A DNA stretch of 64,000 bases from Bacilli bacterium (GTDB lineage: Bacteria; Bacillota_I; Bacilli_A; RF39; UBA660), in the NCBI GenBank assembly GCA_017460745.1, contig JAFUAL010000014.1, positions 924-64,923 on the forward strand, read 5' to 3'. The notes under the pieces were generated by a model that saw only the letters and a program-made list of their open reading frames with translations, was not told the DNA's origin and made no database searches. Position numbers and translations under genes: made by a program. Of this stretch, positions 3,056 through 28,062 are shown in pieces. The stretch's first letter is position 1, and each line of letters begins with the position of its first letter.

Positions 3056-3724
3056 ATGAAAAAATTTATTAAAGATTATATAAAAATAATTTCAACAACT
3101 TTGATAGGATTAGTATTTGTTTTAGCAAGTTTTTACTTAATGATTAACTATAATCATAGTGAGGAAATCAAAAAACAAGTATATATAAGTTATAATGATT
3201 CAAGGTATCAAGAAGGACAAGAAATTTTAAGAAAAATTAATGATAATTTAGTTAAATTTCAAAATAATTCTAATAAAAGTAATGCTAAAGTATTGATGTA
3301 TAATAGCATCTTAAATTGTTATAATGTATTACAAAGTGAAGGAACATTCTTTACTTTAAAACCAGAGAAAAGTTATAGTTCATATGAAATATATGAATTA
3401 GGAGAAAATTTTCAAAGTAAATTAATTAATTCTTGCTATGTATTAAATCTTAGTTATTTAAAAACAGAGGATTTACCAAATGAGTTTAAAGATGTTGCTC
3501 CATTTGTTACTAGTTATGTTGATTCTATAAATGCAAATGTTCAAGATAGTTTAGCAGAGATTGAAAATAATAGTAGTTATTTTTATACAACAAATATTAC
3601 ATCAGCAACTATTAGAAATTATTTAAATAGTGACTATTCAACAATTGCTAATGCTTATATTGATTTTGCTAATATTATACTTAACTTATCCGAAAATATA
3701 AATAGTGTTGGGGAGGGAGTATAA
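3056..3724 (+). CDS. Hypothetical membrane-anchored protein
   Basis: 222-aa ORF with an N-terminal TM segment and an RBS. No recognisable domain. Confidence 0.4.
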   Translation: MKKFIKDYIKIISTTLIGLVFVLASFYLMINYNHSEEIKKQVYISYNDSRYQEGQEILRKINDNLVKFQNNSNKSNAKVLMYNSILNCYNVLQSEGTFFTLKPEKSYSSYEIYELGENFQSKLINSCYVLNLSYLKTEDLPNEFKDVAPFVTSYVDSINANVQDSLAEIENNSSYFYTTNITSATIRNYLNSDYSTIANAYIDFANIILNLSENINSVGEGV

Positions 3725-22735: not shown

Positions 22736-24146
22736 TTATAAAAAAACAATTGGAATAGAAGTGCACGTTGAATTAAAAACAAAAGAAAAATTGTTTTCAC
22801 CTATGATTAATAACTATGGAAGTCTTGCTAATAGTAATGCTAATATTATTGATTTAGGTCTTCCCGGTGTACTTCCGACACTTAATCGTGAAGCAATTGA
22901 TTTAGCCATCCGTGCTTGTCATGTTTTACATTGTAAGATAAATCATCATATGCATTTTGATAGAAAAAATTATTTTTATCCAGATAATCCTAAGAACTTC
23001 CAAATTACTCAAGAAAGAACTCCAATTGGACGTGATGGTTATGTTGAAATAAATGATAATGGTATTAAGAAAAAAATAGAAATACTTGAAATGCATATAG
23101 AAGAAGATACAGCTAAAAGTATTCATGCTAAAAATAATACTTTACTTGATTTTAATCGTGCAGGTGTTCCACTTATTGAAATAGTTACTAAACCATGTAT
23201 CAAATCAAGTCGTGAGGCCGTACTTTATCTTGAAGCCTTAAGAGAATTACTTTTATATGCTAAAGTATCGGATTGTAAAATAGAGGAAGGTTCAATGAGG
23301 TGTGATGCTAATATATCTATTAGTAACTCAGATAAACTTGGAACTAAAATAGAAATAAAAAATATTGGTTCAATTACTAATGTAGGACTTGCAATAGAGT
23401 ATGATGCGAGAAGACAAGAAGAACTACTTAGTAAGGGAGAGATTTTAAAAGAAGAAACAAGAAGATACGATGCTAAGTTAGATAAAACTATTTTAATGCG
23501 TGTTAAAGAAACCGGAAATGATTATAGATATTTTCCTGAACCAGATATTCCTTTCTTTACCATAGATGATGAGTATATCAATAATATAATAAGTGAAATT
23601 CCACTTAATGCTTATAAAAGACGTGAAAAATATTTAAATGCTGGAATTAATACCATAAATGTGGATAAAATTATTGCTAATATTGATATATGTGATTATA
23701 TGGAAACTTTAAATGATGTAAATTTAAAAACAGCATCAAACTTACTACTTGGTGATATAAGTGCCTATTTAAATAAGAAAAATATTAGTATTTTTGAAAC
23801 AAAGTTAACACCATCAAAAATGAAGGATTTAGTAGAAAAACTTGATGGTAATATTATTAGCAATAAAAATTTCAAAGAGATTGTTGTTGATATAATGGAA
23901 AGTGATTTAAATATTGACGAAATACTAGAAAAAAATAATATTAAAAATGTTGTTGATAATAAAGAAATTGAATCTTTGATTAATAAAGTATTAGAAAATA
24001 ACTTAAATGTTGTTTCGGATTACTTAAATGGAAATGAAAGAAGTTTAAAATATTTAATGGGACAAGTTATGAAGGAAAGCCATGGAAGTATTAATCCAGC
24101 TAAAGCCAATGAAATGCTTGTTAAGTTACTGGAAGTTAAAAGATAA
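22728..24146 (+). CDS. gatB: Glu/Asp-tRNA amidotransferase subunit B
   Basis: The N-terminus TIGIEVHVELKTKEKLFS and a C-terminal GatB/YqeY domain. 472 aa. Overlaps gatA. Confidence 0.95.
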   Translation: MTDYKKTIGIEVHVELKTKEKLFSPMINNYGSLANSNANIIDLGLPGVLPTLNREAIDLAIRACHVLHCKINHHMHFDRKNYFYPDNPKNFQITQERTPIGRDGYVEINDNGIKKKIEILEMHIEEDTAKSIHAKNNTLLDFNRAGVPLIEIVTKPCIKSSREAVLYLEALRELLLYAKVSDCKIEEGSMRCDANISISNSDKLGTKIEIKNIGSITNVGLAIEYDARRQEELLSKGEILKEETRRYDAKLDKTILMRVKETGNDYRYFPEPDIPFFTIDDEYINNIISEIPLNAYKRREKYLNAGINTINVDKIIANIDICDYMETLNDVNLKTASNLLLGDISAYLNKKNISIFETKLTPSKMKDLVEKLDGNIISNKNFKEIVVDIMESDLNIDEILEKNNIKNVVDNKEIESLINKVLENNLNVVSDYLNGNERSLKYLMGQVMKESHGSINPAKANEMLVKLLEVKR

Positions 24147-24209
24147 TATTCAAAACTTTTAGATGTGAATATTTTATTTAAAATTACATAAAATATAATA
24201 GAAAGTCAT

Positions 24210-24238
24210 TTGACTTTCTTAAAAATGTGTGCTAATAT
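24210..24238 (+). promoter_or_regulatory. Consensus sigma-A promoter driving the tandem RNA repeats and the toxin gene
   Basis: TTGACT (24210-15), a 17-nt spacer, then TAATAT (24233-38). The -35 sits inside a gaaagtca/tgactttc hairpin that follows gatB. Confidence 0.6.
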
Positions 24239-24257
24239 ATATGGCACATAAGTGATT

Positions 24258-24367
24258 ATGTAATTGATTGCATTGTGAAAGGAAACTGAGGAACATATTA
24301 GTCAATCAATTTATTTCATCTATGAATAGCGTTGTGAAGGGAAACTGAGGAACATGTTAGTCTATTC
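24258..24367 (+). ncRNA. Two tandem ~59-nt structured RNA repeats (candidate type III antitoxin RNA)
   Basis: The core RTTGTGAARGGAAACTGAGGAACATRTTAGTC occurs at 24272-24302 and 24331-24361 and differs only by three A/G transitions. Each core is enclosed by a stem of different sequence (attgattg/caatcaat versus gaatag/ctattc), which is compensatory covariation. No ORF is present in the region. Confidence 0.6.
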
Positions 24368-24376
24368 TAAGATTTT

Positions 24377-24405
24377 GGGAATTCAATTATGGATTCCCTT
24401 TTCTT
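24377..24405 (+). terminator. Intrinsic terminator between the RNA repeats and the toxin ORF
   Basis: gggaattc-aattat-ggattccc hairpin followed by TTTTCTT. It sits 18 nt before the toxin RBS GGAGG (24411-15). Confidence 0.65.
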
Positions 24406-24422
24406 AACTTTGGAGGCAACAT

Positions 24423-24809
24423 ATGAATAATGGTCAAATATTTTATATAAATTTTAGCGGTTATAAAGGGTCTGAAATAAATGACACTCATTTAGGCATT
24501 GTATTTCGTTTACCTAATGTGAAAAATATGGTATTTTGCATACCATTAACCAGTCCTAAAAGGAAACACTTTAAATCGATCGAGGCATTTAACAATAGAA
24601 ATTATAACGAATTAAAATACCAAAATCTGATTTATATAAATCAAACTGATTCAATTGCATTACTTGATCAATTGAGAACAATTTCTACTGCAAGGTTATT
24701 AAACGAATACAAAGATGCAGATAATCACAGTATTGTTTTAAATGAAGAAAATCTATCATTAATTACTATAAAAACAATTAAATATTTAAAACATATATTC
24801 AAATATTGA
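24423..24809 (+). CDS. PemK/MazF(Kid)-fold endoribonuclease toxin
   Basis: GQIFYINFSGYKGSEINDTHLGIVF...VFCIPLTSPKRKHF aligns with the MazF/Kid signature G-[DE]-[IV]-[WY]-x-[VI]-x-F-x-P-x-K-G-S/H-E-x-x-G-x-R-P-x-[VL]-V...P-x-T-[ST]. 128 aa. Confidence 0.65.
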   Translation: MNNGQIFYINFSGYKGSEINDTHLGIVFRLPNVKNMVFCIPLTSPKRKHFKSIEAFNNRNYNELKYQNLIYINQTDSIALLDQLRTISTARLLNEYKDADNHSIVLNEENLSLITIKTIKYLKHIFKY

Positions 24810-24958: not shown

Positions 24959-25243
24959 ATGTCTAAAAGAAAGATTGTAGAAGAGATTTCAGAGGAGTAT
25001 AAAGAAAGACTTGAAAGACTAGATAGTCTAGAACAAGAGTTTGTTGATTCTGTTGTTAAGTTAAGAAAAGATAAAAAATTAACTCAACAAGAGGTTGCAG
25101 ATGATGCAAGTGTAATTAGAGAAACAATTGCAAGAATTGAAAATCGTATTACATCACCTCAAGTTAATACTTTACTTAAAATTCTTGAACCATTTGGTTA
25201 TACAATTAAAATTACTAAAATAAGTAAGAAAAAAGAAAATTAA
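24959..25243 (+). CDS. XRE-family helix-turn-helix DNA-binding protein
   Basis: HTH LTQQEVADDASVIRETIARIENRITSPQVNTLLKI. RBS GGGTGG precedes ATG 24959. Confidence 0.6.
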   Translation: MSKRKIVEEISEEYKERLERLDSLEQEFVDSVVKLRKDKKLTQQEVADDASVIRETIARIENRITSPQVNTLLKILEPFGYTIKITKISKKKEN

Positions 25244-25758: not shown

Positions 25759-26433
25759 ATGAAATATGTAAAGTATTTAATGCTATGTTTTTTATTTTGT
25801 ATTACTTTAAATGTTAAAGCACTTGACAGTTGTACAACAGATGAAATGAATAGACTTAAAGAATTAGCAGGTAATGTTGAATTTAAATATAACTATGAAA
25901 TAAGTAATGAATATATTGCAGAGAATGCCGCTGAAGAAAATTTTGTAGAAGGGGTATTTAAAATACAAGTTTTAAATCATAATGAGGATTTAAGATATGT
26001 TCTTCAATATGATGGTTCCGAATTTGAAATAAATGGTAATGATTTAAGTAGTTTTAGTTTTGATGAAGGAGAAACAATTACTTTTAAAATATATTCATAT
26101 ACTACTAATTTATGTACTCACAATATGTTAAAAACTTATACTATAAAATTACCTTATTATAATCAATATTATCATTATAATAAAGATAAATGTGAAAGTA
26201 ATCAAGAATTTGAATATTGCAAAGAATATTTAGATAAATATACTGGTAAATCAATTTCAGAGATTGACGAAGAATTTGAAAAAAATAAAAATGATGGTTT
26301 AAATATTGTTTCTGAATTACCTAAAAATAATATTGTAATAATTATAATTTCCCTAATAGTAGTTTTAGGATTAGGAATAGGTGGAGTTGTTGTTTATAGC
26401 CAATACAAGAAAAGAAAAAAAGATGATTTATAG
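25759..26433 (+). CDS. Secreted Cys-rich protein with C-terminal TM anchor and basic tail (paralog A1)
   Basis: Signal peptide ...TLNVKA/LDSC, four conserved Cys (CTHNML...CESNQEFEYCKEY), a C-terminal TM IIISLIVVLGLGIGGVVVY, then KKRKKDDL. It is a paralog of 28082-28765. Confidence 0.55.
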   Translation: MKYVKYLMLCFLFCITLNVKALDSCTTDEMNRLKELAGNVEFKYNYEISNEYIAENAAEENFVEGVFKIQVLNHNEDLRYVLQYDGSEFEINGNDLSSFSFDEGETITFKIYSYTTNLCTHNMLKTYTIKLPYYNQYYHYNKDKCESNQEFEYCKEYLDKYTGKSISEIDEEFEKNKNDGLNIVSELPKNNIVIIIISLIVVLGLGIGGVVVYSQYKKRKKDDL

Positions 26434-26448
26434 TATAGTGGTGATAAT

Positions 26449-28062
26449 ATGAAAAAAAATAAATTTATATATATGAGTATAATAGTTTTAATTTTTATTG
26501 CTGCATTAAACATTCTTAGTGTTAAGAGTGTTAAAGCTGAAACTAGTTATACTAATGGTGATCTAAGAAGGTGCAAAGAAGAAGATAAGAACAGTGGAAA
26601 ATGTGAAGAAAAAATAGTGGGTGGAAAAGTAATTGAAACAAGAATAAAAGAAACGTTTGATGAGTACACCGTTACTAAAATTGTTCGTAAAAAAACAGGT
26701 AGTGCTGATAAATTTGATATTAGTTTTATTGTAGATGGACCAGATGCTACTCAAACTCAAGTGTCACGTAATGCAAATATAGTTGTTTTATTTGATAAGT
26801 CAAGTTCTTTAACTGGCAATTCAAATTCATATGAGAATGCGAGAAACGCTGTTGTTGATTTTAGTAAGAGGTTCCAAGAACAAAAGTTGTCTTTGGTGGT
26901 ATTTGCTGGAAATATAAAAACGTTTACAGGAACTCCGTTTAATGCAAACAGTATAAAAAATGCTGGAGTTGGTAGTTCATCTCATATAGAAAAAGCCTTT
27001 AAAAAAGCTAACGAAATATTTGATAACTCAGGTGATGATGAAAATAATTACGTTATCGTTTTCGGTGATGGTCAGTATTGGTTTGAAGGTAATACTTGTA
27101 GAAAATGTGATAATTGCAGATCTAATGAATGTCAGCAAGGGAAAAGTAACACTAATTGTGCAATAACATTTGAAGATGAATTGCAGAAATTAAAATCCAG
27201 AAGTAACATTAATTTTTATGCAATTTTATACAAATCATCTTCTACTACTATTTCTTGTGATTATGAATGGATTAAAAAAATTGCTGATGGTGAAAATTTT
27301 TATGACGCAAGAAGCAATAACAATTATTCAGAATTTTTTGAAAGAATTGCCGAAAGTATTGAAACGCATCAGGAATCAACAACTATTACTATTACAGCTC
27401 TTGTAAAAGATCAAATAGGAAGTGATTTTAATTTAACAAGTGGTAATAATATCATAAATGTTGATAAATTAGGTGTTGAAACTACATCCTTTGAAGTTCA
27501 ATTAAAAGAAAGTGCAAAAACTGAATCAGATGTTTTGTGGCATAGTACTAATAATGGATATACAGTAACTATTCAAAAATCTGATGGAACAAATCGTGAT
27601 TTAAGTTCTAGCTTAAGTCCAGAAGTATATTGGAAACCTGAATCAACAGAATTGGAAAGTTGTTCAGGAAATATCAATAATCCAAAAAGTGAATCGAGTT
27701 CAAATGATTACTTTACAGAAGTATGTGAAGACATAGTTACAGGTAATGTTATTGTAAATAATCTTGATTTAGGAGCAAAAAGTTTTAGCATTCAAAGTGG
27801 ATTAGGTTTTCCTGCTAAAATTAATTTAAATGATACAGTAGCATGTACTTATACATTTAATGCATCTAAATTTAAAGAAGATTACATGGTATATCATAAT
27901 CAATTAAGTTCTAGTGATCCAAAAGAAGTAGCAGATGCTACGGTTAGTTTAGAAGATATGAATAGTAAATTGAATTCTTTTTATGAACTTACAACAGGAA
28001 GTAGATTAAATGTATTTAAAGATAATGAATTTCCTGGACAAACTGCAAAGGTACCTGATTAG
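26449..28062 (+). CDS. Secreted vWA-domain protein (paralog B1), putative pilus-associated adhesin
   Basis: Signal peptide, then GDLRRCKEEDKNSGKC, then a vWA domain with the MIDAS motif VVLFDKSSSL. The C-terminal region has the conserved EVYWKPEST...C.G.IN.P motif shared with B2. Confidence 0.6.
   Translation: MKKNKFIYMSIIVLIFIAALNILSVKSVKAETSYTNGDLRRCKEEDKNSGKCEEKIVGGKVIETRIKETFDEYTVTKIVRKKTGSADKFDISFIVDGPDATQTQVSRNANIVVLFDKSSSLTGNSNSYENARNAVVDFSKRFQEQKLSLVVFAGNIKTFTGTPFNANSIKNAGVGSSSHIEKAFKKANEIFDNSGDDENNYVIVFGDGQYWFEGNTCRKCDNCRSNECQQGKSNTNCAITFEDELQKLKSRSNINFYAILYKSSSTTISCDYEWIKKIADGENFYDARSNNNYSEFFERIAESIETHQESTTITITALVKDQIGSDFNLTSGNNIINVDKLGVETTSFEVQLKESAKTESDVLWHSTNNGYTVTIQKSDGTNRDLSSSLSPEVYWKPESTELESCSGNINNPKSESSSNDYFTEVCEDIVTGNVIVNNLDLGAKSFSIQSGLGFPAKINLNDTVACTYTFNASKFKEDYMVYHNQLSSSDPKEVADATVSLEDMNSKLNSFYELTTGSRLNVFKDNEFPGQTAKVPD

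Follow-up and report, generated by a model that had tools for sequence, protein, structure and literature searches.

In 2025 the type III toxin–antitoxin (TA) systems with endoribonuclease toxins comprised three families, toxIN, cptIN and tenpIN, and the repertoire also included AvcID and AbiF (PMC12283969). Their general order is promoter, tandem direct repeats, Rho-independent terminator and toxin gene, with published ranges of 31–62 nt for the repeat and 1.9–5.6 for the number of copies (PMC3401426). CptIN from Eubacterium rectale (PDB entry 4RMO) is a system of gut Firmicutes that follows this order with about two tandem RNA repeats. ToxIN/AbiQ and TenpIN share the same operon logic, and their antitoxins are pseudoknots that are processed by the toxin. 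The MazF, PemK and Kid toxins, such as the MazF proteins of Staphylococcus aureus and Bacillus subtilis, are counted as type II, where an adjacent and co-transcribed gene of the MazE/PemI type encodes the antitoxin. The Rfam pemK RNA motif (RF02913; Weinberg et al., 2017), which we take to be a structured RNA accompanying pemK toxin genes in Firmicutes, carries the Rfam label Cis-reg.

Here, we analyse a module in a 64 kb stretch of contig JAFUAL010000014.1 from a Bacilli bacterium of the RF39 lineage; the whole stretch is referred to as the window, and related loci carry L-numbers. The module spans 24200–24809 and consists of a promoter, two RNA units, an intrinsic terminator, a ribosome-binding site (RBS) and a gene for a toxin of 128 amino acids. 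With a probability of about 60%, we consider it to represent a type III-like TA family outside ToxIN, CptIN and TenpIN in which a hairpin RNA, rather than a pseudoknot, would act as the antidote. This reading is favoured because the layout, period and copy number are those of type III systems, the toxin has an RNase fold, the RNA is its sole conserved partner and the RNA is able to occur alone. No PemK-family type III system was found in the literature searched.

Locus layout and the toxin

The upstream neighbour gatB ends at 24146, and the next open reading frame (ORF) on the + strand is the toxin gene, with its ATG at 24423. The 276 nt gap between them contains no ORF of 35 or more amino acids on either strand, which bears out the initial annotation's statement that it lacks coding capacity for 60 or more amino acids; four mechanically called ORFs of 26–34 amino acids overlap it. 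The other elements that had been read there are likewise present. A σ70-type promoter, TTGACT-17-TAATAT with a TG extension, lies at 24210–24238 on the + strand; its position relative to the first RNA unit is conserved, and a promoter-like site occurs at the equivalent place in 45 of 48 related loci. Two direct repeats follow at 24267–24306 and 24326–24365, 59 nt apart and 88% identical over 40 nt, each bracketed by an inverted repeat of its own (AATTGATTG/CAATCAATT and ATCTATGAATAG/CTATTCTAAGAT). The intrinsic terminator (24377–24405, + strand) is built from GGGAATTCA-ATTA-TGGATTCCC followed by TTTTCTT, that is, a G+C-containing 9 bp stem, a 4 nt loop and a T run between the array and the toxin gene. 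The region has two terminator-like sites, compared with 0.3 expected from shuffled sequences. The RBS, GGAGG at 24412–24416 (+ strand), is read from the sequence 6 nt before the ATG and aligns across the family. The period of 59 nt and the copy number (two in the window, one to four in the family) are both placed inside the published type III ranges, and the general type III order is found in the window as well as in the family.

The toxin gene (24423–24809, + strand) encodes a protein with a MazF/PemK–CptN fold. Pfam assigns residues 3–103 to PemK_toxin (PF02452) with 34.7 bits, above the gathering cut-off of 23.1 (E = 2.2 × 10−8), and the same precomputed match is found on most family members. 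The protein matches no other Pfam family, ToxN_toxin gives no match at E values up to 10 and PADLOC returns nothing for the toxin. The MazF and CptIN models of NCBIfam both give matches in the twilight zone. A profile search against PDB sequences retrieved PemK, MazF and EndoA alone, and these weakly (E = 0.003–0.6), while 4RMO was not found. The AlphaFold2 model is confident (pLDDT 92), and when used as a Foldseek query it places S. aureus and B. subtilis MazF at the top (E = 4 × 10−5), with CptN (4RMO) at rank 19 (E = 1.6 × 10−4). The toxin therefore has the Kid/MazF-related endoribonuclease fold that is expected of a type III toxin, and it is probably an endoribonuclease.

In an alignment of 60 members, the (nearly) invariant residues are Gly16, Glu18, His23, Pro41, Leu42, Thr43, Ser44, Pro45, Lys46, Lys48, His49, Phe50, Tyr71, Asp76, Ser77, Gln83, Ser88 and Arg91, and the GSE and xPxTS motifs of MazF/PemK/Kid toxins are retained. 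Thr43, in the PLTSPK motif, is at least 90% conserved, and the position of the MazF arginine aligns with His23. From the PDB profile alignment we take Thr43 to be at the catalytic threonine position and His23 at the catalytic arginine position of MazF. Within the MazF/Kid–CptN fold group the toxin is divergent, and it belongs to PemK by the Pfam criterion, not to CptIN, ToxN or AbiQ by theirs; neither a ToxN_toxin match nor close structural similarity connects it to ToxIN/AbiQ. The MazF/PemK signature recognized by the initial annotation, and its distinction from ToxN/AbiQ, are thus confirmed by profile searches, in which PemK_toxin exceeds its cut-off and the CptIN and ToxN models do not.

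The family is small and isolated. When 1.84 billion representative proteins were searched exhaustively with a profile, no more than 22 clusters were obtained at E ≤ 1 × 10−10, many of them fragments, and the hosts are metagenome-assembled genomes of uncultured gut Bacilli, 'Tenericutes' and Erysipelotrichaceae. None of 72 556 plasmid and 50 697 phage records was matched in a tblastn search with the toxin.

A candidate cleavage motif was also considered and rejected. ACATC is the most depleted pentamer in the toxin ORFs of 45 loci (three observed versus 19.7 expected, z = −5.2), compared with a ratio of 0.98 in 152 background ORFs. More than half of the expected count stems from the invariant pair Thr43–Ser44 (window 24549–24554), where the serine codon is AGY in 44 of 44 genes, although TCN makes up 57% of the serine codons in these ORFs. 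Since a change from AGY to TCN requires two substitutions by way of non-serine codons, the deficit is probably a case of phylogenetic freezing and not avoidance of cleavage by the toxin.

The RNA units and their linkage to the toxin

RNA unit 1 (24262–24311, + strand; covariance model 66.8 bits, E = 1 × 10−15) is a three-helix hairpin. Its helices are P1, (AA)UUGAUUGC/G-CAAUCAA(UU), P1b, UGU/ACA, and P2, AG-GAAA-CU, separated by conserved internal loops. A single-stranded linker (24312–24320, + strand) contains a CAU(C) motif at 24317–24320, of which the C and A are invariant and the T at least 90% conserved across 46 leaders. Unit 2 (24321–24370, + strand; 57.8 bits, E = 4 × 10−13) has the same core and a different outer stem, GAAUAGC/G-CUAUUC. 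The covariance model was built from 86 distinct units, and besides the two units it detects nothing below E = 0.3 in the 64 kb window.

The structure was tested on the alignment of these 86 units, with P1 as 8 bp containing one bulged base, P1b as UGU/ACA and P2 as a variable hairpin. Paired cells amount to 91.5%, compared with 26–39% when the 3′ partners are slid by one to three columns. Changes on both sides of a pair are found in 228 cells versus at most 55 in the slid controls, the covariation score reaches 0.459 (no more than 0.113 in the controls), and double changes occur in 12 of 15 pairs. The P1 covariation arises in part from the constant difference that separates unit 1 from unit 2. 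The stems also covary among loci within each unit class, with A–U in 28 leaders and G–C in 16 at one pair, and U–A in 32 and C–G in 13 at another. When applied to full leaders aligned with MAFFT, RNAalifold predicts an outer stem for each of the two units together with inner pairs. The compensatory changes that had been noticed in the enclosing stems are therefore real across relatives, although the enclosing stem was an incomplete description of what is a hairpin of three helices.

The internal loops are nearly invariant (G17, A18, A33, G35, A37, U42 and A44 in the unit alignment). A non-Watson–Crick pair beside P2, formed by alignment columns 19 and 32, covaries perfectly, being A–G in 74 units and C–U in ten; in the window it joins 24279 to 24288 and 24338 to 24347. 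This covariation suggests that the internal loop, whose conserved strands are GA-rich (GAAG/GAGGA), is structured, perhaps as a kink-like or sheared-pair motif. No pseudoknot or additional long-range Watson–Crick covariation emerged when all column pairs were scanned, with weak or tertiary contacts remaining compatible with this result. Single-sequence folding of the window leader does not indicate significant stability (z = −0.98), and the structural case consequently rests on the comparative data. Rfam scans of the window leader and 20 related loci gave at most chance-level matches or tRNAs and no family. The RF02913 covariance model matches neither the window leader (E up to 10) nor the 20 related loci (gathering threshold), the separation from this motif being one of covariance-model scores.

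About 60 related loci from uncultured gut Bacilli have the same RNA beside the toxin. The 55 genome loci yield 46 distinct full leaders, all of which carry the units in the order promoter, (5′ hairpin), unit 1, linker, unit 2, terminator, RBS and ATG, and this order persists even where toxin identity is as low as 44%. Each of the 46 has a hairpin with a T run behind it, and the stem sequences differ. Loci without a full leader are found at contig ends (L023 and L040), have a rearranged leader near the contig start (L008) or contain one hybrid unit (L007, L027 and L041; see below), and L055 is a toxin pseudogene without the RNA. The covariance model also finds units at the five most divergent family representatives. 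The largest array consists of four tandem units upstream of the divergent toxin P0124 (L063, 367–629), whereas L065 has two units upstream and one downstream, L064 one full and one partial unit upstream and one downstream, L066 two units upstream, and L067 a weak unit beside P0142, a family outlier at E = 1 × 10−9.

A deep clade carries a third unit 15–35 nt past the toxin stop, followed by its own terminator, which is lacking in the clade of the window. It lies at 3404–3454 in L037, 3405–3456 in L041, 2520–2569 in L054, 2375–2425 in L059, 834–885 in L064 and 630–679 in L065, and at about 3403–3471 in L043, L044, L045, L046/L047, L048, L049, L051, L052 and L053. Its outer stem resembles that of unit 2, and ACAUAUUA often precedes it. 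In four loci a single hybrid unit combines the 5′ arm of unit 1 with the 3′ arm of unit 2 (L007, 2329–2380; L027, 136–188; L041, 2881–2930; L062, 782–832), a product that recombination of one core with the other would be expected to yield. In 48% of loci the P2 hairpins of the two units differ by no more than one edit, compared with 3% between loci, and the outer stems remain unit-specific in all loci.

When metagenomes were searched with the RNA pattern first, seven loci were obtained: three with the toxin, two single-unit remnants and two assemblies of an orphan array. No other class of gene was found beside the RNA in this search, and the pattern has no match in viral contigs. The orphan array (L061, 2071–2177, − strand; the same sequence in L056, 7482–7568) consists of two intact units with a terminator and a promoter, TTTACT-17-TAAAAT. 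It is flanked by two genes unrelated to the module, and neither the 3.4 kb nor the 7.6 kb locus contains a toxin gene at any position. The array may be an 'anti-addiction' antitoxin RNA.

No comparable protein partner emerges. All-against-all clustering of the neighbouring ORFs at the 55 loci reveals no protein family that adjoins the toxin beyond a handful of loci. In contrast to MazF/PemK/Kid systems, no gene of the MazE/PemI type lies upstream of or adjacent to the toxin, and so the arrangement of a type II operon is not seen. Since the homologues keep the RNA, the stems covary and the alternative of a helix–turn–helix (HTH) antitoxin fails (see below), the family can be said to conserve the type III layout.

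Candidate antitoxin RNA and alternative readings

In the type III-like reading, the constitutive-looking promoter would drive a transcribed region of about 170 nt that ends at the terminator before the toxin RBS. Most transcripts would stop there, providing small RNA in excess of the read-through toxin mRNA. The units would bind and inhibit the toxin via their conserved loops; with its two units, a transcript may provide one for each active site of a MazF-like dimer, and the distinct outer stems would prevent mispairing of the tandem copies. Upon a stop in transcription or loss of the locus, the RNA would decay and the toxin would be freed. Cleavage of the array into monomers by the toxin, possibly at the CAU(C) of the linker, is conceivable. 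We give even odds to a more specific version, in which the toxin is a true Pfam PemK/MazF member standing between type II MazF and type III CptN, and the antitoxin is a tandem array of closed three-helix hairpins that might act without processing, a pair of units occupying both active sites of a single dimer, and with an extra unit in the 3′ untranslated region of the toxin gene in some lineages.

Several observations weigh against an antitoxin role of the RNA. The proposal of a type III system with a MazF-family toxin, as put forward in the initial annotation, holds for the layout, while neutralization, toxin binding and RNA processing are steps that we infer. In every solved structure of a type III antitoxin, the RNA is a pseudoknot whose single-stranded ends reach into the active site (PMC4627078), and the units here are closed nested hairpins for which covariation gives no pseudoknot. 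The two units are not identical throughout, unlike the repeats of ToxI and CptI; non-identical repeats have been reported for TenpI arrays (PMC12283969). The outer stem of the hybrid unit cannot form, yet the toxin ORF of L007 appears to be intact. RF02913 provides a precedent for a structured RNA upstream of pemK genes that is curated as cis-regulatory. A protein antitoxin could possibly be encoded elsewhere in the genome. Finally, the promoter is overlapped by inverted repeats that suggest operators for a dimeric DNA-binding protein, and none is encoded in the module.

These inverted repeats are of two kinds. A perfect 9 bp repeat, AGAAAGTCA-TT-TGACTTTCT, covers the −35 box of the window (24200–24219) as a possible operator, and among the 45 loci with a recognizable promoter, 25 have a perfect repeat of at least 6 bp around this box, with arms that vary by locus (GTC/GAC or ATC/GAT). 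The second, TGTGC-N11-GCACA, surrounds the −10 box and the start site (24228–24248). Its counterparts in most main-clade loci have arms of 4–10 bp with varying inner bases (TGTGATAA/TTATCACA, TGTGGTAA/TTACCACA and others). In both cases the arms differ among loci yet remain complementary, and the deep clade has neither repeat.

The strongest competitor, which we nevertheless regard as unlikely, is a cis-regulatory leader, in which the toxin itself or a host factor would bind the tandem units and thereby govern how the toxin mRNA is terminated, how stable it is or how well it is translated; what keeps toxicity in check would then be weak expression or a partner that is encoded at a different locus. 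The units do lie in the 5′ untranslated region directly ahead of the terminator and RBS, the toxin mRNA of one clade bears another unit in its 3′ untranslated region, and both the Rfam label of the pemK motif and the repeats over the promoter, which indicate added regulation, are in line with this view. However, no antiterminator pairing with the 5′ arm of the terminator is found, the complementarity being below that of shuffled sequences (−3.9 versus −4.7 kcal mol−1). The orphan array, intact and equipped with a promoter and terminator, occurs without a toxin gene, and one to four copies with concerted unit cores are in agreement with a dosage-dependent product that acts in trans. A MazF-fold RNase without any antidote would also be unusual.

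It is less probable still that the module is a divergent cptIN member, which would leave it a type III system and alter its classification alone, as it would then not be a new family. Both families occur in gut Firmicutes with about two repeats each, and there is a weak full-length sequence signal: the NCBIfam CptIN model matches 13 of 60 members (best E = 3.9 × 10−5). These matches score 15–20 bits, far under the cut-off of 90 bits of NF047359 (15.5 bits for the window protein and 18–20 for the best members shown). Pfam, in contrast, puts the toxin in PemK_toxin above threshold, the PDB profile search gives MazF/PemK and not 4RMO, and the family members have 122–139 amino acids compared with 155 for CptN. 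The RNAs differ as well. CptI is a 45 nt H-type pseudoknot with identical repeats, whereas the units here are nested three-helix hairpins, about 50 nt long, whose outer stems are specific to each unit. For E. rectale cptI, a single repeat taken from a published primer (PMC4627078) is dissimilar to the unit, with a local alignment no better than those of shuffled sequences and no invariant motif.

We consider it quite improbable that the array is a tandem riboswitch or ligand-sensing aptamer that gates toxin expression via the terminator. Highly conserved internal loops within covarying helices, arranged in tandem ahead of a terminator, are what such an element would look like. Yet the RNA is found with one small toxin family alone, or as orphans and remnants, it matches no Rfam family and additional units lie downstream of the gene. 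As the complementarity of the terminator 5′ arm to the units is no better than expected by chance, no riboswitch-like expression platform and no antiterminator can be seen.

The last candidate, and a very improbable one, is the XRE-type HTH gene downstream of the toxin (24959–25243), which the initial annotation had offered as a reverse-order protein antitoxin: it is adjacent, on the same strand and has a Pfam HTH_3 domain, but it starts 150 nt past the toxin stop behind a promoter-like site of its own, no homologue adjoins the toxin in any of the 55 loci (best match E = 3.5 × 10−4, 2.6 kb away in one locus), the downstream neighbours vary in size, family and orientation, and its presence at the toxin locus is specific to the window.

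Surrounding elements and significance

Between the promoter and unit 1, a 5′ transcript hairpin, ACAUAA-GUGA-UUAUGU, can be read from the sequence at 24246–24261 (+ strand), and equivalents in the alignments are ACAAG-UUGU or CAUAAGnnAUUAUG. The 5′ arm of the terminator (window 24377–24385) often resembles the invariant GAGGAAC(A) of the unit, for example in L044 (GAGGAACAT), L050, L037 and L010 (AAGGAAC). Such an arm might be a degenerate partial repeat or an extra binding site, and might equally be an ordinary purine-rich arm. A similar likeness between the RBS region of the window, GGAGGCAACATATGAAT, and the unit core, GAGGAACATATTAGTC, was dismissed, as it is missing from the other loci.

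The genes that flank the module vary in identity and orientation. Many loci have tRNA genes no more than a few hundred bases away from it (L013, 3400–3472; L034, 3425–3497; L036, 3425–3498; L007, 2006–2196; L037, 2516–2588; and others), which suggests insertion at tRNA-rich intergenic sites or at the borders of genomic islands. The varied flanks and the frequent tRNA neighbours fit a small autonomous cassette. In the window, the region 3′ of the HTH gene (25759–28062) contains several genes for secreted or membrane-anchored proteins, one of them of 537 amino acids with a signal peptide.

The protein carries the NCBI name of a type II PemK/MazF toxin. If the type III-like reading is correct, a family annotated in this way would in fact be guarded by RNA, and present annotation would hide type III systems. 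The family would then be an intermediate between MazF toxins neutralized by proteins and CptN neutralized by RNA. Its antitoxin would be a new protein-inhibiting RNA fold, which at about 50 nt and with a structure defined by covariation is suited to structural work. In uncultured gut Bacilli, the module could serve in phage defence or in the stabilization of genomic islands.

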